The position numbers and the translations under genes are program-made. This document shows positions 15,786 to 29,639 of a DNA stretch of 64,000 nt, one piece after another. How positions within the stretch are numbered: the stretch's first letter is position 1; the number at the start of each line of letters is the position of its first letter. The notes beneath the pieces are model-generated. The model was not told the origin of the DNA and did not search any database. It worked only from the letters and a program-made list of their open reading frames with translations. The stretch is from a virus, in IMG/VR virus record IMGVR_UViG_3300020079_000009, one strand, 5' to 3'.

Positions 15786-17525
15786 TTAATTCATAAAGCA
15801 CCAGTCTTTAGCATTGAATTTCTTTTTACGTTTCTTATTTTCTTCTACTTGTTTAATATAGTATAATCCATATTCAAAAGCGGAGAATTTATCCTTGCGG
15901 ATACCTTTGTTCGCTTGTTTCAAAATAATGTTTACGCCTTCATTTTCTTCTCGTAAGTTCATCATTTCCTCTTTTAATATGGAAGTTAGGGTAAATGGTT
16001 TTAAATATTCTGCCCTTTCCTCAGGTTTCATATTCTGACCAACCTTGGTGCCAAGCAACTTAGTCTTAGCAACACGCTCGTCAATAAGAAGTTTAACTTT
16101 ACCAGAAGATAACTGAGCTTGCGCATTTGCATGTGCTTCTGTATTGATTGGCGCATTTGCTTTAATCAAATACATAGCATCTTGTTCGGTAATGTTGGTC
16201 TTATACTTTTTATAGTATAACTCATCATCATTATAAACACCAAAGTCAGGATACGTATCTCCTGTATTTGGGTCAATCTGAGATTTAATCATATAGTCGA
16301 CCAAACCAATACCAAGACCATTGGCGTCGATTACGACTCTACGAGCTTTATACTTGTAGAACAGTTTCTTGATACGAATCGCTTGGTCTTCAAAGTGTTC
16401 ATCAGAGAATGTATAAATATTTACCAATGATTTGTATGCCGCACCCATTGATTGTGGGGTTACTTTAAATACACATACTACAGAATCACATCCCTTACGA
16501 CCAACGTCAACAGACAATACATAGAAAGCCTGCGCACTTGAGCGTCCAGAATGTTCCAATTCAGGTTTCTGTAAGTTGCGGTTTCTATCAAAGATTTCTC
16601 CATTGAAGAAAGCGTCAGCTACAGTACCAGTCCATTTTGATTCATACTCACGGTCGAAAGAAGCTTCATTGAAGGTTCCGTCCTTTTTCAGGTCTTGCAG
16701 GAAGTTTTTATCCAGCAACTTCATTAAAACAGGAATTCTCCAAGTTCCGCCCATTACCATTGCCTTGTGAGGCTCAGTAATCATCCAAACCAAGAGCTGT
16801 ATCAATTTATCATATGCAAATGTGTTTTTAAATCCGGCAGTAGTTACATAAATCTGCGACTTATTCAAAGTCTCATCAGGTTGAGTTGTGCCATCCATAC
16901 ACAAACGAGAAACGTTCATGGTAGGAATAATAACCTGAGAAAGAATATCGCCGTCAACACCAACGCACTCCTCTACGAGACCGCCATGTCGACGCTTACC
17001 TCTCGACTTCTCGGACGCCGCAATATTATCGAAATAAGAGCCATTTTTGAATACATAACAAACATAGTCCTTACCTTCACGCGTCTTACCCGGTCGGCGG
17101 TCAAGTTCTCGGTCAAAGGCCGGAACCAGCGTGCAAATTTCTGTAACTTTTTCTTTTACGATACCTGCAGCCTGCTCTTTACCACCAGAAGTAACGAATA
17201 ATTTACTACGTGGATATAAGATACAACGGCACATCAGTACCATAACAGATAAGAATGATTTTGAATACGCACGAGGGAACACCATGTATACATATTTGTA
17301 ACGCATAGCCGCACGCAAAAATACTCGTTGATAGAAGAAAAACTTTAATTTCCTTTCCTTTGTAGGGTCTCCGCCATCTTGGAGAAAATCAATGAACATG
17401 TCTGGATATTCGCGCCAATAGGCAATATATTGGCGCACCGCAGGCTTAATAGCTTCGATACGCTCTTCAGATAGTCCAATTTTCTTTCTCTTGGTAGAGA
17501 GGTCTAATAGGTCTTGAAGAGCCAT
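15786..17525 (-). CDS. terL: terminase large subunit
   Basis: 579-aa ORF. N-terminal ATPase Walker-A-like MVFPRAYSKSF. C-terminal RNase-H-like nuclease motifs VLSVDVGRKGCD and VVIDANGLGIGL typical of TerL. Confidence 0.8.
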   Translation of the reverse strand: MALQDLLDLSTKRKKIGLSEERIEAIKPAVRQYIAYWREYPDMFIDFLQDGGDPTKERKLKFFFYQRVFLRAAMRYKYVYMVFPRAYSKSFLSVMVLMCRCILYPRSKLFVTSGGKEQAAGIVKEKVTEICTLVPAFDRELDRRPGKTREGKDYVCYVFKNGSYFDNIAASEKSRGKRRHGGLVEECVGVDGDILSQVIIPTMNVSRLCMDGTTQPDETLNKSQIYVTTAGFKNTFAYDKLIQLLVWMITEPHKAMVMGGTWRIPVLMKLLDKNFLQDLKKDGTFNEASFDREYESKWTGTVADAFFNGEIFDRNRNLQKPELEHSGRSSAQAFYVLSVDVGRKGCDSVVCVFKVTPQSMGAAYKSLVNIYTFSDEHFEDQAIRIKKLFYKYKARRVVIDANGLGIGLVDYMIKSQIDPNTGDTYPDFGVYNDDELYYKKYKTNITEQDAMYLIKANAPINTEAHANAQAQLSSGKVKLLIDERVAKTKLLGTKVGQNMKPEERAEYLKPFTLTSILKEEMMNLREENEGVNIILKQANKGIRKDKFSAFEYGLYYIKQVEENKKRKKKFNAKDWCFMN

Positions 17526-18754
17526 TAGTCTTCCTCTCCATTCAAGAGTTTTTCAATGTAAGCGGTGTCGTATTCTTCGACATCCTCTTCAAATTCTCTA
17601 AATTCTTCGAAATCACTATCTGTGAGAACCTTAGTAGCACCATCCTCAAATAGTGCGGCTTCCATGAGTTCTTCCTCATCAGCTGCCTCAGATGCGCCAT
17701 CGGCCTCTCTTTGTTTTTCTTCTTCAATCTGTTTAATAGCACTTTCAATCAAGTTACCAAGGTTCATTTCCTCAGTTACCAGATTATAAGTGTAACTTTG
17801 TAAATCTTGTAATGTTCTATCAACCTTATCCTGTGGCCCGTCTGTATAATAACGAGGGATGAACCCATCCTTTTCGCAAATTGCCACAAGTTCGGAAATG
17901 GAGTCTACATACTCACCAGATTCTGCTTTATTCTGAGCCGCAGTAAACTTACCAGACTTCATAAGTCCGTCATACATTTTAATCATCTTCTGAGCACCAT
18001 CAACATCACCAATATCCAAGAGCTGATTAGCTTTCAAAGATGTTTTACAAACTAATTTCAATGTATCAATATGTCCCGCAGTTTGAATATCGTAAGAACT
18101 CATCATTTCTTCATACAACTGTTCCAACTTAATCCATTCTTCTGGTTTATAGGTTTTGCCCCACTTTAATCGCAAGTATGTTCTATCTTCTTCTGTTAAA
18201 TCATCATCAAAAGAAGTATCCTCTCCGGACTGCTGTGCGAAGTAATCATCTTCTTCAAAATAACCAGTCGGTCCAGTATAAGGAGTGTACTCAGGTTCTT
18301 TTAAAATCTCATCCGGGATTGTAAAAGTCGCCTTCGTAACAGCTTCATTAATTTGTATTGCGTCATAGCCTTGACGCTTCATAGTTTCTTCAATTTTTTT
18401 GTTAGCGACTTCTTGTAGATAATCAGTGTGTTCCCAACGATAATCTCGCCACTGTTTTAACTTCATCTTAGATAAGTATCTACCAAGAATTGTCATGCCA
18501 GTTAATTTAGATTTGTCTTTTCCGTAGGACGCAAGTAGCTTATTCCATTCATCTTGAACATAAGGTACATCGCATTCCTGCAGAATCCATAAATATGTAT
18601 CAGGGTTAAAATTGTCAACATGCATTGAAATACATTTCTTGCATTGTTTCAATTTTCCTTCTGGATATTTTTCTAAATTATTTGAACCATAAAATTGTTC
18701 TGCACTCATCGTTCTATTACATTTTTCGCAGTAGAACGTACGGTTATCTGCCAT
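17525..18754 (-). CDS. zinc-ribbon protein upstream of terL (possible terminase small subunit / DNA-binding packaging protein)
   Basis: 409-aa ORF; N-terminal CEKC...CKKC ribbon and acidic C-terminus; stop overlaps the terL start. Confidence 0.3.
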   Translation of the reverse strand: MADNRTFYCEKCNRTMSAEQFYGSNNLEKYPEGKLKQCKKCISMHVDNFNPDTYLWILQECDVPYVQDEWNKLLASYGKDKSKLTGMTILGRYLSKMKLKQWRDYRWEHTDYLQEVANKKIEETMKRQGYDAIQINEAVTKATFTIPDEILKEPEYTPYTGPTGYFEEDDYFAQQSGEDTSFDDDLTEEDRTYLRLKWGKTYKPEEWIKLEQLYEEMMSSYDIQTAGHIDTLKLVCKTSLKANQLLDIGDVDGAQKMIKMYDGLMKSGKFTAAQNKAESGEYVDSISELVAICEKDGFIPRYYTDGPQDKVDRTLQDLQSYTYNLVTEEMNLGNLIESAIKQIEEEKQREADGASEAADEEELMEAALFEDGATKVLTDSDFEEFREFEEDVEEYDTAYIEKLLNGEED

Positions 18755-18800: not shown

Positions 18801-19853
18801 TTATGACTTTTTGCCCTTTGAATTTCTGCAACATTTGCAAATAGAGTAAAAACCATCTTTGCTGGTCTTATTCTTAGAGAAGTATTTATTATGAGCAAGT
18901 TTAATTTGCCCGCATCGAGAGCATCTCTTGTACTTACCTTTTTCCTCATTGAGGAAATACCAATCTAAATATTCATCCTCGGCCGCAGAAGCTATCAAAC
19001 TTGGAATCTTCTTGCGCCAGAGGCTACTAATATACTCAAGAGAATGAGTAATACCAAATTCATCTTTCAGAATCTCTTGAATCTGAACATTTTGGAGTCC
19101 ATCAATTTTACATTCAACAATTCGCTCATAAAGTGGATAATCTGCTAATGCTTTTGTAGCAATATTGTCAAAGTCCTCCATTAAATACCAAGTGTTCGAA
19201 TCAAAGACTCCCCAACTGTCTTGTTTTAATCTTGAATAGTTACATAGGATGGCTTCGCATACTTTTGGGTCCACCAAAGTAACTCCTTTAGAAACGCAAT
19301 ACCCATTTTCATCTAAAGTAATTTCGCCATCCAATTGAATTGGATTTCTGCCATGCATTACTTTATTTAAAACAATTGGTTTGCGGAAAGCATCTTTAAC
19401 CAAGTACTGGTCCTTACGCAATTCAATAATAGCCTTTTTGGCAATGAAAGCGTCTCGACCTGTCGCTTTCTTCAAGATATTTTCCCAAACCTGAATGGCC
19501 TCTCTAATTTGCTGTAACTCTGGGATTTCTTCTAAATCTTTCTTTGTGATTGAAACTTTAGGTCTAAAAATTTGATTCTTGTCTTCTGTTATTAATCCAT
19601 AAATACCATCTTCGCCATTTTCAAATTGGGAAACAAGACCTTCAAAAGACGTTTCGCGCTTTGTAACTGTAGCCATACGGTTTTCAGTTAAAATCTTGCG
19701 CTCCTTTTTCTCTTGTTTCTCCATGCAGAGGATTAGGTAATCAGCGAGAATTTCCAGGTATTTATCACCTGGGTCTGGATTCTCTGCGAGAATCTTCTCA
19801 ACCAATGCCTTTCGCTCTTCTGGAGTTGTTAAACTGTAATCTAATTTAATCAT
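18801..19853 (-). CDS. hypothetical protein with C-terminal Cys-rich zinc finger (first gene of the leftward operon)
   Basis: 350-aa ORF directly downstream of minus-strand promoter TTGACT-17-TGGTATAAT. Confidence 0.3.
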   Translation of the reverse strand: MIKLDYSLTTPEERKALVEKILAENPDPGDKYLEILADYLILCMEKQEKKERKILTENRMATVTKRETSFEGLVSQFENGEDGIYGLITEDKNQIFRPKVSITKKDLEEIPELQQIREAIQVWENILKKATGRDAFIAKKAIIELRKDQYLVKDAFRKPIVLNKVMHGRNPIQLDGEITLDENGYCVSKGVTLVDPKVCEAILCNYSRLKQDSWGVFDSNTWYLMEDFDNIATKALADYPLYERIVECKIDGLQNVQIQEILKDEFGITHSLEYISSLWRKKIPSLIASAAEDEYLDWYFLNEEKGKYKRCSRCGQIKLAHNKYFSKNKTSKDGFYSICKCCRNSKGKKS

Positions 19854-19859
19854 CTTTAA

Positions 19860-19900
19860 CCTCCAGTCTTATACTATAATTATACCAGAAAATTTTCGAA
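19860..19900 (-). promoter_or_regulatory. leftward (late/structural operon) sigma-A-type promoter TTGACT-N17-TATAAT with TGG extended -10
   Basis: Reverse complement of 19860-19900 reads gggTTGACTtttcgaaaattttctggTATAATtatagtataagactGGAGGttaaagATG, leading into the 18801..19853 gene. Confidence 0.6.
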
Positions 19901-19927
19901 AAGTCAACCCGCACTGGAAACCGAATG

Positions 19928-19956
19928 TTGACAAATTAAAAATTTTTTGGTATAAT
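19928..19956 (+). promoter_or_regulatory. rightward promoter TTGACA-N17-TGGTATAAT, divergent from the structural-operon promoter
   Basis: tgTTGACAaattaaaaattttttggTATAAT, followed by RBS GGAAAGGA and ATG 19989. Confidence 0.6.
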
Positions 19957-19988
19957 ATTAGTAAATATGAGGAAAGGATATTGGAGAT

Positions 19989-20336
19989 ATGAAAGTATTA
20001 CTTTATATCCTCGCATTCTTCCTTCTTTCACTCTTGGTTGGAATTATATATTGTTGTATTGCGGTAAGTAAAAATAAAGGTCAAGAGTTTTACGATGACA
20101 AGTGGATTGGTTCTTTAACCCTTGTTGAACATTTTAATCAAACAGAACATAGTGAATTATTTTATTGTGAAAATCACTATGAGCATTTAAATGCAAAAAT
20201 GCAATTGGTTATTTGCCACAAGAGGGCGCCGAGCGCAGAAGAATCTCCTTGGGACGGAGTCCCAAGGGAAATACATAAAGCACAAGTTATTGAGTTGGAG
20301 GGGAGATACTTTTGGCGGGAACTTGGATTGCAATAA
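19989..20336 (+). CDS. membrane-anchored protein (N-terminal TM helix)
   Basis: 115-aa ORF with hydrophobic N-terminus MKVLLYILAFFLLSLLVGIIYCCIAV. Confidence 0.4.
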   Translation: MKVLLYILAFFLLSLLVGIIYCCIAVSKNKGQEFYDDKWIGSLTLVEHFNQTEHSELFYCENHYEHLNAKMQLVICHKRAPSAEESPWDGVPREIHKAQVIELEGRYFWRELGLQ

Positions 20337-20545
20337 TCTTGTGGGGAGTTATTTCCACAATTACATTTATTCCACATATGCCTGCATGCAAAGAGCTTAG
20401 CAGCGCAGATAAATTTACAGTTATGGTCATATTTTTAATCGGAGGGCCATTTTTTGCAATATCTAATATTCTTGAAGAATTATTAAATTGCATTATGCCA
20501 CCTGGTTGGGGAGGAGACGACGATGATTTCTTCAACAAATACTAA
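20312..20545 (+). CDS. small two-TM membrane protein
   Basis: 77-aa ORF with two hydrophobic segments and acidic C-terminus GGDDDDFF. Confidence 0.35.
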   Translation: MAGTWIAIILWGVISTITFIPHMPACKELSSADKFTVMVIFLIGGPFFAISNILEELLNCIMPPGWGGDDDDFFNKY

Positions 20546-21380
20546 TTTTGAACTAAAAAATATTAAAGAGTTTTGTGCCGATTGGAAAGCCAGTCTTAAA
20601 GATCGGCTGAGCGGGCAGCGCGCAATCCTTCATATTATTCAAGTTGGTGACAATCCCGCATCAACACGCTATGTTCGCAATAAAGTGAAGGACGCACAGG
20701 AAGTGGGCATCGAAGCGCAGGTTATTCATTTTCCAGAATCAGTAACCCAAGAGACTGTCGAACAATCCATTATTCAAATTGTTCAGACTAATGCTGAAAA
20801 TCCAGCTGGCATTATTGTGCAGTTGCCATTACCAATTCATTTGGATAAAAATAGAATTACAAGACTTATCCCAAGCCGCATGGATGTAGATGGATTTAAG
20901 AATGATAGTCCTTATTTCCCTTGCACTCCTCTTGGTATTATCACATATCTGAAAGCATGCAATTTCAATTTTGAGGGGGCAAATGCGGTAGTAATTGGAC
21001 GTTCTGAGATTGTAGGGAAACCCGTCGCAGAAATGTTGGTAGATTTGAATTGCACAGTTACATTGTGCCATAGTAAAACAAAGAATTTGCATACCTTTAT
21101 TGATAGCGCAGACTTGATAATTTGCGCGGTGGGTAAGGCCGGATTCCTGAACTGCTATCCGATCTACGTACCGGTTATTGATGTAGGTATTAATTTTAAT
21201 GAAGAAGGTAAAATGGTTGGAGACTGTATTAATACCGAGAATAGACTGGTAACCCCAGTTCCGGGTGGAGTTGGTCTTTTAACCAGATGCGCACTCTTGG
21301 AAAATATGGCGGTAGCCAAGCTGTTGTTTGAAAATCCTCGGCTTGACGAGGCGCAAATTCCAATTAAATTAGGAGAATAA
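20523..21380 (+). CDS. folD: bifunctional methylenetetrahydrofolate dehydrogenase/cyclohydrolase
   Basis: Collinear FolD motifs: VGDNPAS..YVRNKVK, VQLPLP, MDVDGF, PCTPLG, VVIGRSEIVGKP, CHSKTKNL, ADLIICAVGK, VIDVGIN, VTPVPGGVG. Confidence 0.9.
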   Translation: MISSTNTNFELKNIKEFCADWKASLKDRLSGQRAILHIIQVGDNPASTRYVRNKVKDAQEVGIEAQVIHFPESVTQETVEQSIIQIVQTNAENPAGIIVQLPLPIHLDKNRITRLIPSRMDVDGFKNDSPYFPCTPLGIITYLKACNFNFEGANAVVIGRSEIVGKPVAEMLVDLNCTVTLCHSKTKNLHTFIDSADLIICAVGKAGFLNCYPIYVPVIDVGINFNEEGKMVGDCINTENRLVTPVPGGVGLLTRCALLENMAVAKLLFENPRLDEAQIPIKLGE

Positions 21381-21382
21381 AA

Positions 21383-21646
21383 ATGAGAATTAGACCAGAA
21401 AACACAACAAGAAAAATTGATGCGCTCGGACGTGTCACGATTCCTAAGGGCTTGCGTGACCGAATGGGACTCCATGAAAATGATGACATGGAATTGTTCA
21501 CAATGGAAAGCGGCGGATGCGAGTACATTTGTTTGCGCTCAGCCCGCATTGAAGCTGATAAATATCGCCTTGCCGCAGAATTGCTCCAAGAATTGAATAT
21601 TGCTGTTCCAGCTGAACTCGCAATCAAGGTTGGGTTGGAGGACTAA
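21383..21646 (+). CDS. AbrB/MazE/SpoVT-type swapped-hairpin DNA-binding regulator
   Basis: N-terminus RKIDALGRVTIPKGLRDRMGL..DDMEL matches the AbrB N-domain consensus (RKVDELGRVVIPIELRRTLGI..D.LEI). Confidence 0.8.
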   Translation: MRIRPENTTRKIDALGRVTIPKGLRDRMGLHENDDMELFTMESGGCEYICLRSARIEADKYRLAAELLQELNIAVPAELAIKVGLED

Positions 21647-21648
21647 TT

Positions 21649-21987
21649 ATGGCAGGGCGCAATTTAGCAGAACTATTTCATGGAAAAGAAAATGCGATTA
21701 CCGCGCAGAAATTGCGTGAGGGTCGCAGTTGTTTGGTAACTGGGTATGGACAAAGCATGACTCCCATTTTGGAGAGTGGAGATAGTGTTATTTGTATTCC
21801 TGTAACCGAGGATACGAAATTGCATAAGAATGATATTGTTCTATGTAGAGTGGGTGGGCATTACTACCTGCACAAGATAGTAGCTATTAAGAATGGAAAT
21901 CGGTATACGATTGGAAACAACCATGGACACATTAATGGCACTATTGGGCGAAACAATATTTTTGGAGTCGCCGTAGAAAGAGTTTAG
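21649..21987 (+). CDS. standalone S24 (LexA/CI-like) serine peptidase domain protein
   Basis: GQSMTPIL (Ser nucleophile in a GxSM context), GDSVI, and downstream LHKIV (candidate Lys of the Ser-Lys dyad). Starts 2 nt after the AbrB-like gene stop. Confidence 0.65.
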   Translation: MAGRNLAELFHGKENAITAQKLREGRSCLVTGYGQSMTPILESGDSVICIPVTEDTKLHKNDIVLCRVGGHYYLHKIVAIKNGNRYTIGNNHGHINGTIGRNNIFGVAVERV

Positions 21988-22397
21988 AAAGATTGGGTTC
22001 CGTACCATTCGGTATGGGACCCATTTCTTATTTTTCCCGTAAACCGAAATCTGAAATTGATTTAGTGGGAGGTTTGTCCAGGAAATAACATTTCATCAAC
22101 AATAAAAAAAAATTTTCCCGAAATACACCCCCCCGGGTATGTTGGCATACACAGCACAGGCACACACACAGACAGAGAGGTACGCCCCTCTCTACGCCCT
22201 ACAGAGCTACGCACATGTACATACAAAGAGATACATACACAATGACCAAGAGGTAATGAGTACATAACACATACACATCTATCTATACATACAACAATAG
22301 ATAATAATAATAAATAATAAACAACACAATGATGTACATACTAATACATACGCTGGGCCGTGCATGGATGGCGCGGCCCTGGTTGGCATGGTATACA

Positions 22398-22468
22398 TCT
22401 TGCACAAATAAAGGGCGCAACAATTGTGCAAATCTACCTATTGACAAACCTCCCGAAACGTGTTATAC
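22398..22468 (+). promoter_or_regulatory. class-3 promoter (TTGACA-17-TATACT) with upstream inverted repeat TGCACAA-N16-TTGTGCA (candidate operator)
   Basis: cTTGCACAAataaagggcgcaacaaTTGTGCAAatctacctaTTGACAaacctcccgaaacgtgtTATACT. Confidence 0.55.
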
Positions 22469-22503
22469 TAAGGGTACAACAAAGGAAGAGAGAGGTACAC
22501 ACA

Positions 22504-22839
22504 ATGAAACACATCAGCACAATCTACGTAGTAAGAAACAATGAGACACACAGACACACCTACTATACTAAGGAATGCGCACCTGCTGAAGCAAGACCTA
22601 TGCTTTACCACACAAGCAAGACTATCAACGTACACCAAGAGGATGGCACAGTGCGCACAGCATACATGTACGGAGAGAAGAGCTACAGCTACGACGCAAC
22701 AGAGGTAGCACAGTACAAAGAAGCACAAGCAGCTAAGAGACAGAGAGAAGCAGAGAGAAAGGCTATGCTTGCTACTATCATGACACACTATGAGGCAATG
22801 GATACTGAGGCACTGGCTAAGGTAATAGCTACTCTGTAA
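22504..22839 (+). CDS. hypothetical protein (within the T-depleted compositional island)
   Basis: Promoter TTGACA-17-TATACT at 22440-22468, RBS GAGAGAGG, ATG 22504. Coding strand almost devoid of T at many codon positions. Confidence 0.4.
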   Translation: MKHISTIYVVRNNETHRHTYYTKECAPAEARPMLYHTSKTINVHQEDGTVRTAYMYGEKSYSYDATEVAQYKEAQAAKRQREAERKAMLATIMTHYEAMDTEALAKVIATL

Positions 22840-22996
22840 GGGTAGCTACCGTGTGCGGCCCTGCTATCCCTAACTGCCACAGAGCCAGGAGGCACAGAAA
22901 AAAGTCTGCACAAACGTGTAAAAAAAGCTTGACACAAACCTCCTGTAATGGTATAATAAAGATACAAAGAAAGAAGTAAAGAAAGAGGTAGATACA

Positions 22997-23287
22997 ATGA
23001 GTAAGAGAGTAACAGAGATGATGACTATACTGTTGGTAGTAGTAGTGTTCATGGGCATGCTGGGGCTGTGCGGCTACGTAGAGACACACTACACACGCAA
23101 GGACTGCGTAGTAGTACACACAGAAGGACAGCTTGCAGAGGTAGAGGACAAGCAAGGACATGTGTGGTGCTATGAGGTAGAGGGCACAGCACCAAGCGTA
23201 GGCACAGTGGTAGATGTACACATGTACACAGCACACACTGATGGATACATCTATGATGATGAGGTAGTAGGAGTAAGCACACACTAA
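22997..23287 (+). CDS. small membrane protein
   Basis: Promoter cTTGACAcaaacctcctgtaatggTATAAT at 22929-22957, RBS GAGGT, hydrophobic N-terminus. Confidence 0.4.
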   Translation: MSKRVTEMMTILLVVVVFMGMLGLCGYVETHYTRKDCVVVHTEGQLAEVEDKQGHVWCYEVEGTAPSVGTVVDVHMYTAHTDGYIYDDEVVGVSTH

Positions 23288-23517
23288 TGCAGTGTGTGCT
23301 ACTACACACTACTACTAATACTACACTAATACAGAAAGACCGCCATAGGCGCGCGCACGGTCCTGGCGCGCCTGATTGGTGCTATTGTAAAACCTGCACA
23401 AAAAAGGCTTGCAAAATCGGCGTAAATTTGTGTAAAATAAATCTCCCAAAACCCTTGACAAAATACCTGCGCGCATGGTATACTATAGATACAAAGAAAG
23501 AGAGAGAGGTACAACCT

Positions 23518-23772
23518 ATGAACACTTATACTATCTACATTAACAACAACGCTATCGCTACTATTAGTGGTACTGAAGCTTGCTATGCTTGCTACGAAGC
23601 AGCTAAGACCATCGCAGAGATGACTTGCCAGACTGCTTCCCTTGTGTGGGATGAAACTGGCGAAGTAGTAGCCTTCTACGACCCTGAGGAAGAGGACTAC
23701 GAAGAGCCTGCTGACATTGATGACGATTTTGGCTTTGACCCTTACGAAGGATGTTACACTTATGATTGCTAA
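23518..23772 (+). CDS. small acidic Cys-containing protein
   Basis: Promoter at 23456-23486 (TTGACA...TGGTATACT), RBS GAGAGGT, ATG 23518; 84 aa. Confidence 0.4.
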   Translation: MNTYTIYINNNAIATISGTEACYACYEAAKTIAEMTCQTASLVWDETGEVVAFYDPEEEDYEEPADIDDDFGFDPYEGCYTYDC

Positions 23773-23860
23773 AAAAAAATTAAAAAAGGGGCTTGACAAA
23801 AAGCCCCCTCCATGTTATAATAAAGATACAAAAAAGGAAAACAAAAGGAGACTGATAACT

Positions 23861-24286
23861 ATGATGTGTGCAAGTGAACTGGCAATTGTGAGAAATGCAA
23901 GCGTAATGAAGTGGGAAAAAGAAAAGGCAGAAAGTCTTGCTCGTCTGTTGGGTGCGAGTGTTGAATTCTGTGAAACTGAGATTGGACCTGCCCTTGAGAA
24001 GCAGGCTCTCAACCCTAAGGGTGGACTGATTTCAACTTCTATTGACCTCGCTATGGCTTCCGATGCTTACGGCAACGAGGTACTGCGTCCTATTCGTTTC
24101 GATGGCAAGAAGTATGCAAATGGAGATTGGAGTTATTCTCCTTGCACTGACAAGAACTATCACAAGACTTTCATTGAAGAGTATCTTGCTCAGCATTGTC
24201 TGTCTGTAAGGTGGGAAGAAACTACTTACAATCGCTATGGTTTTGGCTCTTGCCGAGCTTACAAACTGATTGTTGAAGTAAAGTAA
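23861..24286 (+). CDS. hypothetical protein
   Basis: Class-1 promoter at 23794-23821 with -35 inside the GGGGCTT...AAGCCCC hairpin; RBS AAGGAG; ATG 23861. Confidence 0.45.
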   Translation: MMCASELAIVRNASVMKWEKEKAESLARLLGASVEFCETEIGPALEKQALNPKGGLISTSIDLAMASDAYGNEVLRPIRFDGKKYANGDWSYSPCTDKNYHKTFIEEYLAQHCLSVRWEETTYNRYGFGSCRAYKLIVEVK

Positions 24287-24365
24287 AAAAATGCAAAAAG
24301 GGGTTGACAAACTCAACCCCTTGTGCTATAATAATTACAGAAAGAAACAGAAAGAAGTGGTAAAA

Positions 24366-24698
24366 ATGGCTTACGGATGTTATTCAGAAGTGTATTACGC
24401 AGAACATTTAGAAATTAGAACGGCAATCAAAATTGGGGAAACGACTAATGCAAGGCGTAGAAGTAATCAGTTGCTCCAAGAAGATTATTTAATTCTTCAA
24501 TCATTAGACATTGGCGGCGGAGAATGCGAAAGGCTATTTGTAGAAAGTTTTTTGCGAATGAAAATTCTAAAAACACAAAAGGCTCGGCGCATTCGCAAAG
24601 ATTATTTTAATTGCGCTGATCTTGATACAGTAGAATTTATTAAATCTCACTTTCAAGAGTGGGTAATGGAAGCAATAACAACAATGAGGGGAATGTAA
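24366..24698 (+). CDS. T5orf172/GIY-YIG-like domain protein (putative)
   Basis: Motif IKIGETTNARRRSNQL resembles the KIGxT...R..QL core of the T5orf172 (GIY-YIG-related) domain. Class-1 promoter at 24304-24332. Confidence 0.4.
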   Translation: MAYGCYSEVYYAEHLEIRTAIKIGETTNARRRSNQLLQEDYLILQSLDIGGGECERLFVESFLRMKILKTQKARRIRKDYFNCADLDTVEFIKSHFQEWVMEAITTMRGM

Positions 24699-24770
24699 AA
24701 ATTCCCCTTGACAATCAATTAAAATTATGGTATAATAATAATACAAAGAAAAGAAAAGGAGATAGATACA

Positions 24771-24980
24771 ATGGGTGAAGGTTGTTTGATGGTAATTCTC
24801 GCGCTGGCACTGGTGTTCGGCGTTGTGTGTTTCGAGGCATGGATTGGGATGCTTCTGTTTAACTGGGTGATGAGCCTGTTCGGCTGTGCGTTTGCTCTAA
24901 CATTTTGGCAGGCTTTCGGCATCTGCGCTCTGCTCAGTTTTGTAGGTGGCTTTTTCAAATCGAGTTCCAAGAGCAATTAA
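24771..24980 (+). CDS. small hydrophobic membrane protein
   Basis: 69-aa, two TM segments; class-1 promoter at 24709-24739; followed by intrinsic terminator 24983-25011. Confidence 0.45.
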   Translation: MGEGCLMVILALALVFGVVCFEAWIGMLLFNWVMSLFGCAFALTFWQAFGICALLSFVGGFFKSSSKSN

Positions 24981-25011
24981 GGAGAGGGGAAACCCTCTCT
25001 TTTTATTTTTT

Positions 25012-25130
25012 CGGCCGCGCGCTGTCGGCTGTGGCGCGCGGTGTTTCTGCCAAGAGGTAATCTGCACAAAAATCTCGTGGAAAATTTGTGCAATTTTGTG
25101 CTTGACAAACATCCCGAAATGGTGTATACT
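25012..25130 (+). promoter_or_regulatory. class-3 module: GC-rich hairpin (25012-25041) + operator TGCACAA(25063)-N16-TTGTGCA(25092) + promoter TTGACA(25102)-17-TATACT(25130)
   Basis: Coordinates worked out by hand; the half-site TTGTGCA is repeated a third time right before the -35. Confidence 0.55.
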
Positions 25131-25160
25131 TAAGGTACAAAAGATGAGGGGGTAATAACT

Positions 25161-25343
25161 ATGATGATGAACATTACTATTGACAGACCTTGGAGCGAAC
25201 AGCCTGAGGAAGTACGCAACGCAATCGACGAACAGACTTACAACAAGGTTGCTGAGGTTCTCGGCATTAAGTTGGTAAGTCGCAAAAAATGGTACGAAAA
25301 GGTATTGACAAACATCTCAAAGTATGGTATACTTAGAGCATGA
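25161..25343 (+). CDS. small hypothetical protein (3' end overlaps the next promoter)
   Basis: Class-3 promoter at 25102-25130, RBS GAGGGGG. C-terminal codons ...EKVLTNISKYGILRA are encoded by a TTGACA-17-TATACT promoter. Confidence 0.35.
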   Translation: MMMNITIDRPWSEQPEEVRNAIDEQTYNKVAEVLGIKLVSRKKWYEKVLTNISKYGILRA

Positions 25344-25359
25344 AAGGGGGATACTAAAG

Positions 25360-25683
25360 ATGAAACCTATGAATACTACATTCCACGCAGGAGTGGAACG
25401 AGCAAACCGACTGCAAGCATTGGAAGAAGTTCTCGGCTTCACAAACCCTGTGCTTGAAGTTGAAGTAATTGAAGAAGAAAAGAGGTACTTGCTAACCAGT
25501 AGTGGAATTATCATTGTTAAGAATTTGTATCGTGACATTGTGATAACTGCATTTATGGCAAATGTCAATCAGTGCTATCGTCTTTACAGAATGGCGGGCA
25601 AGGGGCAGATGTCACCTAAAATGGAAAAGCGAGTAATGAAAAATTGTCAAAGACATCCAGAATTATTTACGATTAGGGGTTGA
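25360..25683 (+). CDS. hypothetical protein
   Basis: RBS AAAGGGGGA, ATG 25360 (MKPMNTTFH...). Confidence 0.4.
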   Translation: MKPMNTTFHAGVERANRLQALEEVLGFTNPVLEVEVIEEEKRYLLTSSGIIIVKNLYRDIVITAFMANVNQCYRLYRMAGKGQMSPKMEKRVMKNCQRHPELFTIRG

Positions 25684-25741
25684 CAAAACCCCTAAGCCGT
25701 GGTATAATAATTACAGAAACCAAGAGAGAGGAATTGATACT

Positions 25742-26155
25742 ATGAAGAAATTAGTAAACCTTAGATGCTATGCGGCAATCGGCAATGATGACTACTGCGA
25801 CACTTCCATTTGGAATCACATTCGCTATGTGGAAGTTGGCGAGTGTAACACGACAGAATACACACTCGAAACCTTTGAAGAAGCATTTGCGGCAGTTCGT
25901 GACCACAGAATCAGAAATGCAGAAACTGGTTGCACTCTATTTCGCAATCGTCCGACCATCGAAATTGGTTGGGGCGACTTCTACAGAAACAAAAGCAAAA
26001 TGACAGAAAAGACTTTCAAGCCCATTCGTGTCAGGTGGGAATGGGAAGAGGTTACAAGAATGTACACAATGAAAGACCTTGCGGACTTGCTCCCTGCTGA
26101 ACAGTTCTGCGAATGGTTGAAAGACAGAGGGATTACAATGGTTGGCTCGATGTGA
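25742..26155 (+). CDS. hypothetical protein
   Basis: Class-1 promoter at 25680-25708, RBS GAGAGGAATTGATACTATG. Confidence 0.45.
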   Translation: MKKLVNLRCYAAIGNDDYCDTSIWNHIRYVEVGECNTTEYTLETFEEAFAAVRDHRIRNAETGCTLFRNRPTIEIGWGDFYRNKSKMTEKTFKPIRVRWEWEEVTRMYTMKDLADLLPAEQFCEWLKDRGITMVGSM

Positions 26156-26262
26156 GCCAACCGCCCGTACAAAATAAATTAAAAAAGTTTTGAAAAACCT
26201 ATTGACAAACCCACGAACCTATGTTATAATAAATACAGAAATTGAGAGAGGAATTGATAACA

Positions 26263-26937
26263 ATGAACAAGAAAATTATTTACTGCACACTTGATACTGA
26301 AACTGTTGGCGGAGCTTCTAATCCTACTGGAATGTACAACCTCGGTTGCACTATCCACGACAGAGAGGGCAACATTTTCGCAACCGCTTCTCTGCTTGTA
26401 ATGGAACACTATGACGAAATCGCACAGGACGATTACGCAAAGAAGAACTTCCCTATCTATCGCGAAAGACTGATGACTGGCGAAATGTCTGCGGTGGCTA
26501 CCGAAGCCGAAGCACTTTCCATCGTTCGCAACCTTTGCAAGTTCTATGGTGTTCGCTATGTAATGGCTTACAACTCTGCTTTCGACTTTACCAAGACTAT
26601 TTGCAGAGAACTGCTCGACGAGTTTGAGTTCATCGACATTTACTTGATGGCTTTGCAGACCATCTGCCACAAGAAAGGCTTTGCGAACTTCTGCCACGAG
26701 AATGGCTTCCAGTCCTCTTCCAAGAAGTCTTGCTCTACTACTGCACAGACTGTCTATGGCTTCATCACTGGAAATGCTGACTACATCGAAGAACACACTG
26801 CACTGGCTGACGCACTCATCGAAATGGAAATCTTTGTGGCTTGTCTGAAAATGCACAAGAAATTCAACAAGAACATTCACCAGTGGGACGCAAAGGGCAG
26901 AGAGTACAACAAGTGCTTTCCGAAGTGGGTGGACTAA
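26263..26937 (+). CDS. DEDDh 3'-5' exonuclease (DnaQ/RNase T-like) paralog 1
   Basis: Exo motifs YCTLDTETVG (Exo I D-x-E), AYNSAFDF (Exo II), HTALADALIEMEIF (Exo III with His). Class-1 promoter at 26203-26230. Confidence 0.7.
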   Translation: MNKKIIYCTLDTETVGGASNPTGMYNLGCTIHDREGNIFATASLLVMEHYDEIAQDDYAKKNFPIYRERLMTGEMSAVATEAEALSIVRNLCKFYGVRYVMAYNSAFDFTKTICRELLDEFEFIDIYLMALQTICHKKGFANFCHENGFQSSSKKSCSTTAQTVYGFITGNADYIEEHTALADALIEMEIFVACLKMHKKFNKNIHQWDAKGREYNKCFPKWVD

Positions 26938-27048
26938 GTCCCCCACTTTCCCCGGTCAAAAAAAATAAAAAACTTTTCAAAAACCTATTGACAAACACGA
27001 AAATCCATGCTATAATTAAGATACAAAAAAGGAAAGGAAGTAAACACA

Positions 27049-27498
27049 ATGAAGACTATGAACATCACAATCAACTTTGACATGGACGGCACAATCGCTG
27101 ACCTCTATGGAGTAGAAAACTGGCTCGAATACCTCATCGCAGGCGACACATTCCCTTACGCAAACGCAAAGCCTCTGCTTAGACTTGCAACTCTCGCTCG
27201 CAGACTTAACACTCTCCAGAGAAATGGCTACAACATCGCAGTTATCTCTTGGCTGAGCAAGAGTGGCACAGAAGAATACAACAGAGCAGTTACCGAAGTC
27301 AAAATGGATTGGCTCAAGAAACATCTGCCAAGTGTCAACTGGAACGAAATCCACATTGTACCTTACGGCACACCAAAGCAGAACTTCTGCAAAACTCCTC
27401 TCGATGTGCTTTTCGATGATGAAGAACGCAACAGAACAAACTGGACTGGCAAGGCTTATGATGTGCAGAACATCTTGGAAATTCTCGCAGAAATGTGA
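27049..27498 (+). CDS. HAD-superfamily 5'(3')-deoxyribonucleotidase-like hydrolase
   Basis: N-terminal HAD motif I FDMDGTIADLYG (DxDGT) and overall NT5C-like size; class-1 promoter at 26988-27016. Confidence 0.6.
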   Translation: MKTMNITINFDMDGTIADLYGVENWLEYLIAGDTFPYANAKPLLRLATLARRLNTLQRNGYNIAVISWLSKSGTEEYNRAVTEVKMDWLKKHLPSVNWNEIHIVPYGTPKQNFCKTPLDVLFDDEERNRTNWTGKAYDVQNILEILAEM

Positions 27499-27571
27499 GA
27501 ATTTCCCCTTGACATTTTCAAACCGTTGTGCTATAATTTAATTACACCAAGAGGAAAGGAACTGATACCCC

Positions 27572-27790
27572 ATGATGATTAACACGAATGAACCCACTTG
27601 CCCCACTTGCGGCGGCTCCCTCATTTCTATCTCACACTACGATGTTGAAGACCTCGACACAGGCACAATCGCAATGAGCGTGGTCGGTGGCTGTGACCAC
27701 TGTGGCAACACCTATGAATGGGTTGAGTATTACGCCTACAAGGGTCACGCAGACATCAAGCCCACCCAAATCAGGGCGAGAGCAATTTGA
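27572..27790 (+). CDS. small zinc-ribbon protein
   Basis: CPTCGG...CDHCGN pairs; class-1-like promoter at 27505-27535; terminator at 27776-27805. Confidence 0.45.
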   Translation: MMINTNEPTCPTCGGSLISISHYDVEDLDTGTIAMSVVGGCDHCGNTYEWVEYYAYKGHADIKPTQIRARAI

Positions 27791-27805
27791 CGCTCTCGCC
27801 TTTTT

Positions 27806-27958
27806 GGCGCGCCGCCCACGACCCAGGCGGCACGAATTTCCATTATAACACTTCCTCAGCATTTTGTCAATAGGCAATTTGCACAAAGTTGCGAGAGGTC
27901 AAATTCCTGAAATTTGTGCATTTTGACTATTGACTTCTATTGGGGAGTGTGTTATACT
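27806..27958 (+). promoter_or_regulatory. class-3 module with divergent promoters: GC hairpin 27806-27834; antisense promoter (minus strand) -35 at 27865-27870 and -10 at 27842-27847; operator TGCACAA(27880)-N27-TTGTGCA(27920); sense promoter TTGACT(27930)-17-TATACT(27958)
   Basis: Reverse complement reads cctaTTGACAaaatgctgaggaagtgtTATAATgg, a perfect class-1 promoter firing leftward into the GC hairpin and the preceding gene terminator. Confidence 0.5.
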
Positions 27959-27964
27959 GTACTT

Positions 27965-28055
27965 ACAGATGAGGGGTGAGGTTTAATGCTGAGCCGCTCA
28001 AGCAGAAAGGGTTCAAACCCCTTGGGGGACGCCCCTAAAAGCCCCTCATCTTTTT
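27965..28055 (+). ncRNA. candidate ~90-nt small RNA (or leader with tiny ORF) from the class-3 promoter, enclosed by a long-range stem GATGAGGGG...CCCCTCATC plus U5 terminator
   Basis: The gene-less transcript begins GTCAG-type conserved start, has internal hairpins, and ends in a T-run at 28051-28055; only an in-frame run-on ORF (27986) with no independent support. Confidence 0.35.
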
Positions 28056-28144
28056 CAAAAAAAATAAAAAAAGTGCTTGACAAACGGTCAATGCGGTGCT
28101 ATAATAAAGATACAAAGAACGGAACAGAAAAGGAGACAGGAACA

Positions 28145-28633
28145 ATGACTAAGGGAAACGCAATCAGATACTACAGAAAGTTTAGTGGCGCACAGGGTTA
28201 CATCCTCGGTTTCACTTACAAGAAGAAGAACTACATGGCAATCGTTGATGAAATCATGCCTCGCTTCATTCGAGTAGAAAAAGAAGCAAGCAAAAAGGGT
28301 GGCAAGGAAAAGCTTCAGCTTCGACTGACTAATCAGCACATGGAACAGCTCATTCGCAAGGGCGCAATCGAAATCGACTACGAAGTAACCAACGGCAACA
28401 ACGGCAGAAACTTTGAAATGTGGGTACAGAGATACTTCGGTCAGGTCGCAAGAGATTGGGATAATGACGGCTTTTGGGTTGGTGGTGATGTCAATGTGAA
28501 CGGCATTGAGTATCAAATCAAATTCAACGGCGCACAGATTGTCACTTTCGACACTCTCCACAATTTGCAGAAGTGTGGCAAGGACTACAAAAACTATGTG
28601 CCTAAGCGTGGCAGAAAGAAAAAAGTTGCCTAA
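28145..28633 (+). CDS. hypothetical protein (162 aa)
   Basis: Class-1 promoter at 28078-28106, RBS AAAAGGAGA, ATG 28145 (MTKGNAIRYY...). Confidence 0.45.
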   Translation: MTKGNAIRYYRKFSGAQGYILGFTYKKKNYMAIVDEIMPRFIRVEKEASKKGGKEKLQLRLTNQHMEQLIRKGAIEIDYEVTNGNNGRNFEMWVQRYFGQVARDWDNDGFWVGGDVNVNGIEYQIKFNGAQIVTFDTLHNLQKCGKDYKNYVPKRGRKKKVA

Positions 28634-28687
28634 GGGGGTTGACAAACCCCCAAAGGTATGCTATAATAATACCAAGAGGTGAGATAA

Positions 28688-28849
28688 ATGAAAAAGAAGA
28701 AAACCATTGACAATCGCATTTTTAAGAAAGAGGGCGAAGAACTGCAACAGTATTTGCACTTTCGCAAGCGTGGGTCGGTAGTCGAGAACAAAAAGGGCAA
28801 AGGCTCGTACAATAGAAAAAAGTTCAAGAAAATTGAAAAAGACTATTGA
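28688..28849 (+). CDS. small lysine-rich protein (53 aa); 3' end overlaps the next promoter
   Basis: Promoter gGTTGACAaacccccaaaggtatgcTATAAT, RBS GAGGTGAG, ATG 28688. Not in the ORF track (<60 aa). Confidence 0.3.
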   Translation: MKKKKTIDNRIFKKEGEELQQYLHFRKRGSVVENKKGKGSYNRKKFKKIEKDY

Positions 28850-28907
28850 CAATTAAATAAAAATGTGGTATAATAATTATAGAAAATAAAGAAAAGAGGT
28901 TGTTACT

Positions 28908-29153: not shown

Positions 29154-29228
29154 AAAATGGGGGTTGACAAACCCCCAAACCTATGCTATAATACAAGTAC
29201 AAACCAAAAGAAAAGGAGAATGATACTA

Positions 29229-29381: not shown

Positions 29382-29429
29382 GAAGAGCGAGGGGAAACCC
29401 TCGCTTTTTCCATTTCAAAATCCAAAATG

Positions 29430-29590: not shown

Positions 29591-29639
29591 GTCAGTAAGG
29601 GAGAGAACAAAATCCCATCAAAAAGATTTTGAAAAAACC

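Follow-up and report, generated by a model that had tools for sequence, protein, structure and literature searches.

Repressors of the LexA/CI type (S24) carry a DNA-binding domain at the N terminus of the same chain and cleave themselves on stimulation by RecA*; they have an Ala-Gly or Cys-Gly cleavage site about 35 residues upstream of the nucleophilic Ser, and use a Lys as the general base (K156 in LexA and K97 in UmuD). The S26B enzymes are typified by a Ser that is paired with a His. Switches in which the repressor and the protease are encoded by two separate genes are also known, as represented by ImmR/ImmA and CapH/CapP. AbrB-type transcription factors have been reported in jumbo phages (PMC7824862), and both AbrB and spoVT appear in a list of sporulation genes from phages of the human gut (PMC10294663).

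The locus described here carries, in a row, the genes for FolD, an AbrB/SpoVT-type protein and an S24-like protein. According to the original prediction, the latter two form a split, SOS-responsive repressor. If real, a switch of this kind would represent a new type of regulatory architecture; the comparative data presented below speak against it, which spares the effort of two-hybrid and RecA experiments on the pair.

Organization of the early operon

The locus lies in a 64-kb window, this being the whole stretch of DNA analyzed. We found a divergent early promoter region at 19872..19963, in which two mirror-image promoters of the sigma-70/sigma-A type are located within a 37-nt imperfect palindrome (inverted repeat). 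The promoter on the + strand (19928-19956; TTGACA-17-TATAAT) matches the consensus at 12/12 positions and has a TG extension, and that on the - strand (19907-19879; 11/12) drives the gene of a sigma-factor-like protein (18801..19853, - strand; 350 aa, phrog_5767), which heads the divergent structural/late block and served as the clade anchor for our comparisons. On the other side, the genes are followed by an intrinsic terminator on the + strand (21994..22033), in which a stem of 13 bp, 7 of them GC pairs, encloses a 4-nt loop and is followed by a T-run. Another promoter is located at 22441-22469. The perfect promoter, the strong terminator and the Shine-Dalgarno (SD) site of each gene back the view of a single operon. 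Taken together, 19928-22033 is probably one early operon of independent small genes, driven by the host RNA polymerase, in a siphovirus-like phage that has a genome of roughly 200 kb and infects gut Bacillota.

All genes of the operon are on the + strand. The first (19989..20336) encodes a 115-aa protein having a hydrophobic segment at its N terminus, for which no family was matched, and is kept only in the closest relatives (L016/L017, 90%). It is followed by the gene of a small membrane protein of 77 aa, orf77 (20312..20545; motif FLIGGPFFA...GWGGDDDD), copies of which accompany AbrB, being found upstream of it in L018, L021, L024, L027, L028, L036 and L041, and were detected in 34/67 of the loci anchored on the sigma-like gene. 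The genes of FolD (20523..21380; 285 aa), the AbrB-like protein (21383..21646; 87 aa, SD AGGAGA) and the S24-like protein (21649..21987; 112 aa, SD GGAGGA) were all confirmed, each with its own SD site, and the three reading frames lie exactly where the original prediction had placed them. Its domain calls for the three proteins also proved right. Besides two small membrane proteins, the operon would thus supply FolD, the AbrB-type regulator and the stand-alone S24/S26-like protein, all translated from ribosome-binding sites of their own. Since no similarity to the DNA of the locus was found among 50,697 phage records, the genomic context was taken from protein-anchored loci, with 4-6 kb around each locus being compared.

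FolD is an accessory gene of the operon

The FolD protein, a bifunctional 5,10-methylene-THF dehydrogenase / 5,10-methenyl-THF cyclohydrolase, has both THF_DHG_CYH domains, with Pfam scores (86 bits for PF00763 and 141 bits for PF02882) far over the gathering thresholds, and matches phrog_7320 (5e-69). Its identity to E. coli FolD amounts to 42%, and the motifs Y50-x3-K54, VQLPLP, DVDGF, GxSxxVGxP and PGGVG line up in this alignment, so that all catalytic and NADP-binding motifs are present. The NCBIfam score (205 bits) is under the equivalog cut-off of 421, indicating that the protein is a divergent member of the family. Judging from the intact motifs, it may interconvert 5,10-methylene-, 5,10-methenyl- and 10-formyl-THF, and would thereby replenish the pool of one-carbon units from which thymidylate and purines are made while the phage replicates its DNA. 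At this position of the operon, FolD is an accessory (variable) gene, and between close relatives it is much more divergent (72% to L016) than the flanking genes (99% for AbrB). The proposal that FolD is an auxiliary metabolic gene of the phage is supported by phrog_7320 and by its existing annotation in Enterococcus phages EF1 and VRE9 and others; this role of a phage FolD is therefore already known and not new.

The AbrB-like protein resembles a complete AbrB

Both small proteins encoded downstream of FolD have large and well conserved families of homologues, with matches far beyond chance. The AbrB/SpoVT-type transition-state-regulator-like protein scored 46.4 bits against the AbrB domain TIGR01439 (cut-off 28.3) and 36.4 bits against PF04014 (24.7). 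These matches cover residues 9-45 only, corresponding to the swapped-hairpin (looped-hinge helix) N-terminal domain, and residues from about 46 to 87 were predicted to form a strand and two helices. When the family profile was searched against the PDB, SpoVT-N (9e-8) and AbrB-N (3.5e-6) were found, and no MazE chain was matched. Similarly, the top Foldseek matches were AbrB, SpoVT and Abh, the best of them being a full-length AbrB model with a TM-score of only 0.52. In phages lacking the S24-like gene, the AbrB proteins do not differ in architecture or in their invariant residues. The 87-aa protein appears to be an entire AbrB that possesses a C-terminal domain of its own and would need no partner. 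It may be a self-sufficient regulator of AbrB/SpoVT architecture, composed of a DNA-binding swapped-hairpin N-domain and a C-terminal oligomerisation domain, and most likely represses or times the early promoters of the phage and/or transition-state genes of the host. In the clade, the AbrB-like gene is frequent at this position beside the divergent promoters.

Both Pfam and PHROGs label the AbrB match as 'MazE antitoxin', and the gene order and the sizes of the products (87/112 aa) mimic MazE/MazF, as would be expected of a type II toxin-antitoxin-like pair with an AbrB/MazE-fold antitoxin upstream of a small toxin. We regard such a pair as most improbable, because the downstream protein has a LexA/SPase fold, not that of MazF or CcdB, and because the AbrB profile finds SpoVT, AbrB and Abh, not MazE. 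In addition, the putative toxin is encoded by itself in dozens of loci from phages and bacteria, and the putative antitoxin occurs without the toxin. A toxin-antitoxin module or a defence system was also rejected on the basis of PADLOC, which gave no match.

The S24-like protein belongs to a large stand-alone family

The 112-aa protein scored 28.7 bits against PF00717 (gathering score 23.3). The GxSM serine and the downstream HK noticed in the original prediction are present as a GQSM motif containing Ser36 (G-x-S-M-x-P) and as His75-Lys76, and a further motif, N-N-H-G-H-x-N-G, is located at residues 90-97. Ser36, which aligns with LexA S119 and UmuD S60, is invariant in the close members (121/121) and kept in 129/136 distant representatives. 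Among 150 representatives, His75 is conserved in 143, and position 76 is occupied by Leu in 79 and by Lys in 52, indicating that Lys76 is not conserved. His75 was aligned to the catalytic Lys of SpsB and to UmuD K97, and we infer from these alignments that Ser36 may pair with His75.

The protein consists of a protease-like domain only, with no DNA-binding domain and no transmembrane anchor, and residues 1-35 contain no hydrophobic segment. Having neither a membrane anchor nor a signal sequence, it should be cytoplasmic. No Ala-Gly/Cys-Gly cleavage-site region was found in the 35 residues that precede Ser36, the sole conserved Gly (G12) following E/H/K and lying 24 residues from Ser36; the AbrB-like family is likewise devoid of a conserved AG/CG site. 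Fold searches recovered the catalytic-domain fold of clan SF (LexA-CTD-like), and the structurally closest PDB chain was SipA, a non-catalytic homologue. At the sequence level, the S24 profile gave only marginal matches in the PDB, with the best E-value of 0.15 to SpsB, and the hhalign alignment of the family to LexA was weak and ended before the Lys region; the alignment to UmuD and the searches by fold told more. The NCBIfam scores were below the cut-offs for both TIGR02227 (20.2 bits vs 47) and TIGR02228 (19.7 vs 51.85). An assignment to signal peptidase I by profile searches, named originally as the outcome contrary to a split switch, is half borne out, with S24 and S26 lying at about the same distance from the protein.

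Clustered at 50% identity, the family yields at least 2081 clusters, nearly all of them with a length of 95-125 aa and typically of about 105 aa. An HTH or AbrB fusion was absent from all 180 close and 2081 distant clusters, and the longer homologues either run through a TAG codon into the terminator or have N-terminal extensions that are unrelated. The S24-like ORF of the present phage itself ends at a TAG codon. Members occur in many unrelated large phages and in chromosomes of Clostridia and Selenomonadaceae; in an isolate of Ligaoa zhengdingensis, the gene is located between genes that appear chromosomal by their N-terminal sequences. No conserved partner gene was found for the family across 55 loci. 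The neighbours are lineage-specific only, such as an M16-like peptidase in Selenomonadaceae MAGs.

A stand-alone S24-fold protein encoded by a phage could also be an accessory subunit like UmuD' or HumD, namely, an analogue of UmuD' made in processed form that would associate with a Y-family polymerase in translesion synthesis, for which HumD of phage P1 reportedly provides a precedent (McLenigan et al. 1999, listed among the references of PMC4713147). However, hhalign gave a probability of only 2.9% for the alignment of the family to UmuD, and the invariant family motifs (YLH and NNxGxxNGW) are missing from UmuD. Furthermore, no UmuC/IMS-type polymerase was found in the operon or in a Pfam scan of the large ORFs of the window, nor is a UmuC-like gene (about 420 aa) conserved beside the family members across the 55 loci. 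It is therefore hardly to be expected that the 112-aa protein acts in this manner. The fallback offered in the original prediction, a UmuD-like or signal-peptidase-like stand-alone factor, comes closer to the evidence than the switch itself.

The 112-aa protein would accordingly represent one copy of a very large, cytoplasmic, stand-alone family with the LexA-CTD/signal-peptidase fold, and is most likely a small Ser/His endopeptidase acting in trans, independently of AbrB and RecA, with both catalysis and substrate being presumed. A bolder and decidedly tentative proposal is that the family is a very large, soluble branch of clan SF, common to Bacillota chromosomes and unrelated large/jumbo phages and using Ser/His instead of Ser/Lys, which serves in phages as an early trans-acting protease or as a decoy of the LexA/CI-CTD against a specific host protein. 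If this is true, the family would provide a new host-takeover activity, not a repressor module. This uncharacterised cytoplasmic Ser/His S24/S26-like family is the only element of the locus that is modestly novel.

The AbrB-like and S24-like genes occur independently

To see how the genes are distributed, we used the loci anchored on the sigma-like gene as an unbiased sample, as these were chosen on that gene alone. AbrB was counted in them by tblastn, not by ORFs, because most relatives carry in-frame TAG codons that make an ORF-based count too low. In 66 such loci, AbrB was present in 38 and FolD in 13, and S24 was found in none, with 0/38 of the AbrB genes having an S24-like neighbour in the 4-6 kb compared per locus. 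When 32 AbrB-bearing loci were examined, the S24-like gene was adjacent in 6 and FolD was present in 9, and all four combinations of presence and absence of FolD and S24 occur beside AbrB. Conversely, AbrB was adjacent in only 6 of 59 S24-bearing loci. In the relatives L021/L023, about 190 unrelated nucleotides take the place of the segment corresponding to 21634-22043, which contains S24 and the terminator, and both flanks are homologous; homology to the S24-less relatives picks up at 22044, just past the terminator, and AbrB is intact there. The S24 protein of the present phage is 70-74% identical to copies in unrelated phages, as compared to 65-74% within its own clade. The S24-like gene is a mobile accessory gene. 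Since FolD, AbrB and S24-like come and go independently among the relatives, they are separate early genes and not halves of a switch, and AbrB and S24-like are probably neighbours here because they share a variable cargo slot of the operon.

The adjacency of AbrB and S24 is restricted to one sub-lineage, and the genes are independent nearly everywhere else. Within this sub-lineage, the FolD-AbrB-S24 trio is kept across moderate divergence, a point against independence. The distance between the stop codon of AbrB (TAA) and the ATG of S24 is 2 nt in the present phage, with the two ORFs in different frames; the genes overlap by 1 nt in L007 and are 71 nt apart in L083. The spacing here and in L007 leaves room for translational coupling and for a functional link of a facultative kind. 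Given the different frames, the strong SD site of each gene and the variable spacing, a frameshift or fusion joining the two, for which the original prediction suggested a check, was rejected, and no fused homologue was found.

One possible form of such a link is a facultative pair, in which the S24-like protein, where adjacent, processes or degrades the AbrB-like protein in trans without RecA, and thereby times the switch from early to middle expression. The pair is kept over sigma-like identities of 83-93%, and its members diverge alike, with identities of 64% (AbrB) and 68% (S24) to L083, whose sigma-like protein is 83% identical, and of 63% and 65%, respectively, to L007. However, the counts given above (6/32, 0/38 and 6/59), the unchanged architecture and invariant residues of AbrB in S24-less phages, and the clean removal of S24 beside an intact AbrB in L021-L023 make this unlikely.

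The split LexA/CI-like repressor of the original prediction goes further, as AbrB would bind DNA and the separate S24 protein would bind AbrB and, on RecA*-ssDNA, cleave or inactivate it, yielding a two-gene DNA-damage switch. The genes are indeed adjacent, co-oriented and tightly spaced here and in L007, L016/17 and L085, the LexA-CTD-like fold and the nucleophilic Ser are retained, and two-gene switches such as ImmR/ImmA and CapH/CapP exist in principle. Against this, S24 adjoins none of the 38 AbrB genes of the unbiased sample and AbrB only 6 of 59 S24 genes, no AbrB-S24 fusion occurs among more than 2000 clusters, and the genes of L083 are 71 nt apart. The proteins themselves do not fit either: AbrB appears complete, a conserved Ala-Gly/Cys-Gly site is missing, the linker of AbrB (residues 51-60) varies more than any other segment in its family, and the general-base Lys is replaced by His. 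Nor does the context suggest SOS control or lysogeny, as the 64-kb window contains no Cheo/LexA box (GAACN4GTTC), a scan of window ORFs revealed no integrase or CI-type lysogeny module, the relatives in culture that are closest by portal similarity are Enterococcus phages of roughly 140 kb, which we take to be virulent, and the S24-like family also exists as a lone chromosomal gene in bacteria. We therefore consider a split repressor very unlikely, and prefer the view of an early operon of independent small genes.

Discussion

The locus offers a clear example of a variable early-operon cargo slot, into and out of which FolD and S24-like are swapped, in an abundant clade of ~200-kb gut phages. 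The phage AbrB-type regulator beside the mirror-image early promoters is a tractable candidate for an early-gene timer or, alternatively, for interference with the transition-state and sporulation control of the host. With regard to annotation, proteins of about 105 aa labelled 'S24 family peptidase / phage repressor / LexA' belong to the big Ser/His family and should not be read as repressors.

In comparison with LexA, lambda CI and UmuD (MEROPS S24, clan SF), the S24-like protein shares the nucleophilic Ser in G-x-S-M (LexA S119, UmuD S60) and passes the PF00717 gathering score; it differs in having no DNA-binding domain or cleavage-site region, in having His, not Lys, at the general-base position, and in its family-specific NNxGxxNGW and YLH motifs. 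Its family is a lone gene in bacteria and phages, with no link to RecA/SOS. In comparison with the S26 signal peptidases (the Ser/His enzymes of the ER/archaeal/SipW type and the non-catalytic SipA of S. pyogenes), SpsB of S. aureus gives its best sequence alignment in the PDB, in which the GxSMxP and [KH]-[KR] boxes are matched, and its NCBIfam matches to sigpep_I_bact and sigpep_I_arch are weak (about 20 bits vs cut-offs of 47-52); the membrane anchor or signal sequence and the GDN...DSR box E are missing. HumD of phage P1, a UmuD' analogue without the N-terminal arm, likewise has an S24 fold, a length of about 110-130 aa and no DNA-binding domain, and is encoded by a phage as a separate protein, but the sequence relation is very weak, the conserved motifs are different, and no polymerase partner was found here in the operon or among the large ORFs of the window.

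The proposed switch shares its concept with ImmR-ImmA (ICEBs1) and CapH-CapP (CBASS), in which a DNA-binding repressor is inactivated by a separately encoded protease on DNA damage. The proteases of these systems, which are of the ImmA/IrrE family, are Zn metallopeptidases that strictly co-occur with their HTH partners, whereas the present protein has an S24/S26 fold and does not co-occur with AbrB. FolD is the same bifunctional enzyme as other phage-encoded copies (phrog_7320; Enterococcus phages EF1 and VRE9, and Prevotella phages), with both domains and all catalytic motifs, and is likewise found in large phages, including distant relatives of the present phage, but is only about 37-45% identical to them. 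Finally, compared with AbrB, Abh and SpoVT of B. subtilis, the 87-aa protein shares a swapped-hairpin N-domain bearing the VRK-D-LGR-IP-LR signature, and matches the 96-aa AbrB in total length and two-domain layout; its C-terminal half is unrelated in sequence, and its gene sits in a phage early operon.

Organization of the Early Operon

The window is phage DNA. Between about 3 and 19.9 kb its minus strand carries the genes of portal, terminase-like and virion proteins together with a sigma-factor-like gene (18801-19853), and the gene direction switches to the plus strand from 19989 onward. The portal shares 38% identity with its counterpart in the gut phage phAss-1 and about 30% with the portals of ~140-kb Enterococcus phages, and a 198,667-bp metagenomic contig carries a near-identical locus. 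No integrase or CI-type module was found among the window ORFs scanned. Two divergent early promoters of the sigma-70/sigma-A consensus, one on the plus strand (19928-19956; 12/12, with an extended -10 TG) and the other on the minus strand (19907-19879; 11/12), lie back to back as mirror images inside a 37-nt imperfect palindrome, 78% complementary (19872-19963). Downstream of the plus promoter follow two small membrane proteins, orf115 (19989-20336) and orf77 (20312-20545), and then FolD, an AbrB-like protein and an S24-like protein. In the last three, a strong Shine-Dalgarno sequence precedes each ATG by 6-7 nt, so that every one of them has an independent translation signal. A strong intrinsic terminator on the plus strand (21994-22033; 13-bp stem and T-run) lies directly 3' of the S24-like gene. 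The promoter at the start and this terminator at the end indicate a single early operon driven by host polymerase.

The sigma-like protein has a Cys-rich, zinc-ribbon-like C-terminal tail with weak HNH/Lar-like PHROG matches, and no Pfam family, sigma-factor or other, matched it at E <= 0.001. In relatives, the gene downstream of it has a YonG_N domain (PF27269); in the window, 17525-18754 on the minus strand lies in this position. The membrane protein at 20312-20545 belongs to a group of 73-98 aa with the motif FLIG(A/G)P(A/F)F...LD.I.P.GWD(N/G) and an acidic tail, which matched no known family. It was detected in 34 of 67 sigma-anchored loci by ORF-based phmmer, and lies upstream of AbrB in the relatives L018, L021, L024, L027, L028, L036 and L041, even where FolD and S24 are missing.

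FolD Is a Known but Variable Component

The FolD gene lies at the predicted position (20523-21380, plus strand); it matched both Pfam FolD domains far above threshold and phrog_7320 at 5e-69, and its product is 42% identical to E. coli FolD. Alignment with the latter showed intact motifs, namely Tyr50-x3-Lys54, VQLPLP, DVDGF, GxSxxVGxP, AVGK, IDVGIN and PGGVG. Phage-borne FolD is a recognised family and an already known auxiliary metabolic gene, annotated in isolated phages, among them Enterococcus phages EF1 and VRE9, Prevotella phages and a 595-kb huge phage; K01491 is among the folate-metabolism genes of gut vOTUs (PMC11938785). The enzyme would raise the supply of one-carbon units for making dTMP and purines.

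FolD is variable at this operon position. It occurs at 9 of the 32 loci with AbrB and at 13 of the 66 loci in an unbiased sample, which was anchored on the sigma-like gene alone and took in loci with 2.5 kb or more of the divergent operon. Between the window and its relative L016, FolD is only 72% identical, as compared with 99% for AbrB, 93% for S24 and 92% for the sigma-like gene. The operon is mosaic, and the low value for FolD beside the high value for AbrB suggests that the FolD cassette was replaced by recombination.

The AbrB-Like Protein Resembles a Complete Regulator

The predicted 87-aa AbrB-type ORF (21383-21646, plus strand) was borne out, with a looped-hinge-helix domain at residues 9-45 matching TIGR01439 at 46 bits (cut-off 28). 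The family is narrow, with 46 clusters, all of ~87 aa and found only in this phage clade. Searched against the PDB, the family profile matched the N-domains of SpoVT (9e-8) and AbrB (3.5e-6) and also Abh, and matched no MazE chain. The signature TRKID-LGR-TIPK-LRDR parallels that of AbrB, VRKVDELGRVVIPIELRR, including the DNA-contacting arginines. In an AlphaFold2 model (pLDDT 80), the AbrB-type hairpin domain precedes two paired strands and two helices; Foldseek returned a full-length AbrB model first, followed by SpoVT, AbrB-N and Abh-N. Taken together, the profile matches, signature and model suggest a regulator of the AbrB type that is complete, C-terminal domain included.

It is a further member of an already known type of regulator. 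AbrB-type transcription factors have been noted in jumbo phages (PMC7824862), and AbrB and spoVT are listed as sporulation genes in a survey of human-gut phages (PMC10294663). The protein would bind DNA as an oligomer and may control the mirror-image early promoters, host transition-state genes, or both; the nearby palindrome that contains these promoters is an obvious candidate for its operator.

The S24-Like Protein Belongs to a Large Single-Domain Family

The 112-aa ORF at 21649-21987 (plus strand) scored 28.7 against Pfam Peptidase_S24 (gathering score 23.3), in agreement with the original prediction. Weak matches below threshold were to signal peptidase I, in both its bacterial and its archaeal form, and to the maturation protease of NiSOD. 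A word-indexed search collected 180 clusters at 90% identity, nearly all of 103-112 aa and none with a second domain. An exhaustive profile search extended the family to 2081 clusters at 50% identity (650 of them at E <= 1e-10), nearly all of 95-125 aa; the few longer members contain no DNA-binding domain or are TAG read-throughs or N-terminal extensions. The protein adopts a clan-SF fold in a confident AlphaFold2 model (pLDDT 89.6). Since Foldseek placed LexA C-terminal domains first (E 4e-4) and then SpsB, it appears about equidistant from S24 and S26.

A GxSM serine and a downstream HK had been noted in the protein. Ser36, in G-x-S-M-x-P, is invariant across the family and His75 is conserved in 143 of 150 members, whereas the neighbouring Lys76 is Leu in 79 of 150. 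His75 occupies the catalytic-lysine position in the HMMER alignment to SpsB and by extrapolation of the LexA alignment, and hhalign aligns it with UmuD K97. An accessory protein of the UmuD'/HumD kind seems highly improbable for a family whose other invariant positions (D62, Y73-L74, N90-N91-x-G93-x-x-N96-G97-(W/T)98) are its own. That so diverse a family has strictly kept Ser36 and His75 favors a catalytic peptidase with a Ser/His pair. It is probably cytoplasmic, as the protein has no N-terminal hydrophobic anchor. An Ala-Gly cleavage-site segment is likewise absent. We infer a small endopeptidase that would act in trans on a host or phage substrate, independently of RecA and AbrB.

In an unrelated phage group (L001:5985-6312; also L002-L006, L008 and L009), the S24-like homologue has no ATG, GTG or TTG at its conserved N-terminus, and ATT/ATA lies 6-9 nt past a strong AAGAGGTGA Shine-Dalgarno sequence, suggesting a non-canonical start codon.

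AbrB and S24 Are Distributed Independently

The AbrB stop and the S24 start are 2 nt apart, as predicted, and in different frames. The two genes had been proposed to form a possible split SOS-responsive repressor. We assessed gene presence within a few kilobases around each locus. Across 17 viral/metagenomic and 38 genome loci anchored on the S24-like protein, AbrB adjoined the S24-like gene only in L007 and L016/L017, and no neighbour was conserved, the others being unrelated (NAD-salvage, thymidylate synthase/DHFR regions, GmrSD-like and bacterial housekeeping genes). Among AbrB-anchored loci, the window, L007, L016/17, L083 and L085 have S24 next after AbrB; L018-L043 lack it there and have other small genes instead. 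Beside AbrB all four states occur (FolD and S24, FolD only, S24 only, neither). L021/L023 are homologous to the window through AbrB as far as 21633 and again from 22044, with ~190 unrelated nt in place of the S24 gene and terminator. The unbiased sample of 66 loci contained AbrB in 38, FolD in 13 and S24 in none. The window S24 is 65-74% identical to homologues in its own clade, apart from the near-identical L016, as compared with 70-74% in unrelated phages, and the AbrB-S24 spacing varies among loci (2 nt, 1-nt overlap, 71 nt). No Cheo/LexA box was found in the 64-kb window, and PADLOC gave no match. Together, these results argue that the two genes adjoin because the position 3' of AbrB is a slot for variable cargo, and not because they make up a two-part repressor; the split SOS repressor is very unlikely. 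A toxin-antitoxin pair is extremely unlikely given the same distribution. The FolD-AbrB-S24 trio is stably inherited in one sub-lineage (sigma-like gene 83-93% identical), as would be expected of a facultative, RecA-independent protease-regulator pair; with AbrB so often found without S24, this too we regard as unlikely. We consider it probable that one early operon combines FolD for one-carbon supply, an AbrB-type regulator and an independent S24-like peptidase acting in trans.

TAG Codons and Other Features of the Window

The S24-like ORF ends in TAG (21985-21987), which some pipelines read through (P0002). Homologues of the sigma-like gene carried 1-7 in-frame stop codons in 66 of 80 related phage loci (L086-L165); all 198 were TAG, most of them opposite Gln of the window protein, and AbrB homologues are TAG-interrupted in some loci. 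Such interruptions agree with the recoding of TAG that has been described in the group of phAss-1 (PMC10607447). No in-frame stop interrupts the sigma-like gene of the window itself.

The region of about 22000-36000 is unusual in composition, with an A over T skew of 0.13-0.27, many short ORFs lying 200-500 nt apart, and low-complexity spacers rich in CA/GA (e.g., 22140-22200); a further consensus sigma-A promoter occupies 22441-22469. Downstream of the operon, relatives likewise have small genes that are separated by long spacers. The phage segment 49326-60806 (plus strand) resembles a biosynthetic locus of the RiPP type, with a Na_sulph_symp/CitMHS-type transporter (49326-50750), an M28/M20-like peptidase (52018-53073), a YcaO cyclodehydratase (55156-56961; PF02624, 1.7e-30) and two weak radical-SAM-like ORFs (57986-59362 and 59355-60806), all on the plus strand. 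GC falls to 0.33-0.38 over 50-64 kb.

The S24-Like Family in Bacteria and Its Relation to Known Peptidases

The S24-like gene also occurs in assemblies of Clostridia, Selenomonadaceae and Bacilli, where it is a lone gene in seemingly chromosomal surroundings. The isolate Ligaoa zhengdingensis (L069) carries it as WP_249281526.1, annotated 'S24 family peptidase / phage repressor protein', between neighbours that look like malic enzyme and aminotransferase by N-terminal sequence. In Selenomonadaceae MAGs (L049, L051, L056, L057, L061, L062, L065 and L067) it adjoins a divergently oriented gene for a ~980-aa protein that looks M16/PreP-like on the same basis. Public names for the family ('S24 family peptidase', 'phage repressor protein', 'LexA') are only domain-inferred. 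With the split-repressor reading unsupported, the remaining novelty is this very widespread, uncharacterised family of small proteins.

The modelled protein folds like the clan-SF peptidases and presumably works like them. Unlike LexA/CI-type S24 repressors, it has no DNA-binding domain, cleavage site or Lys base. The alternative role raised originally, a signal-peptidase-like factor, lies closer to the evidence than the split repressor, but the protein scores below the family thresholds and, unlike membrane signal peptidases, is without an anchor. S26B signal peptidases are Ser/His enzymes, and the Ser/His pair seen here is analogous to theirs, although in a protein that appears to be cytoplasmic. 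The family is best called a stand-alone, soluble Ser/His S24/S26-like family, apparently uncharacterised.
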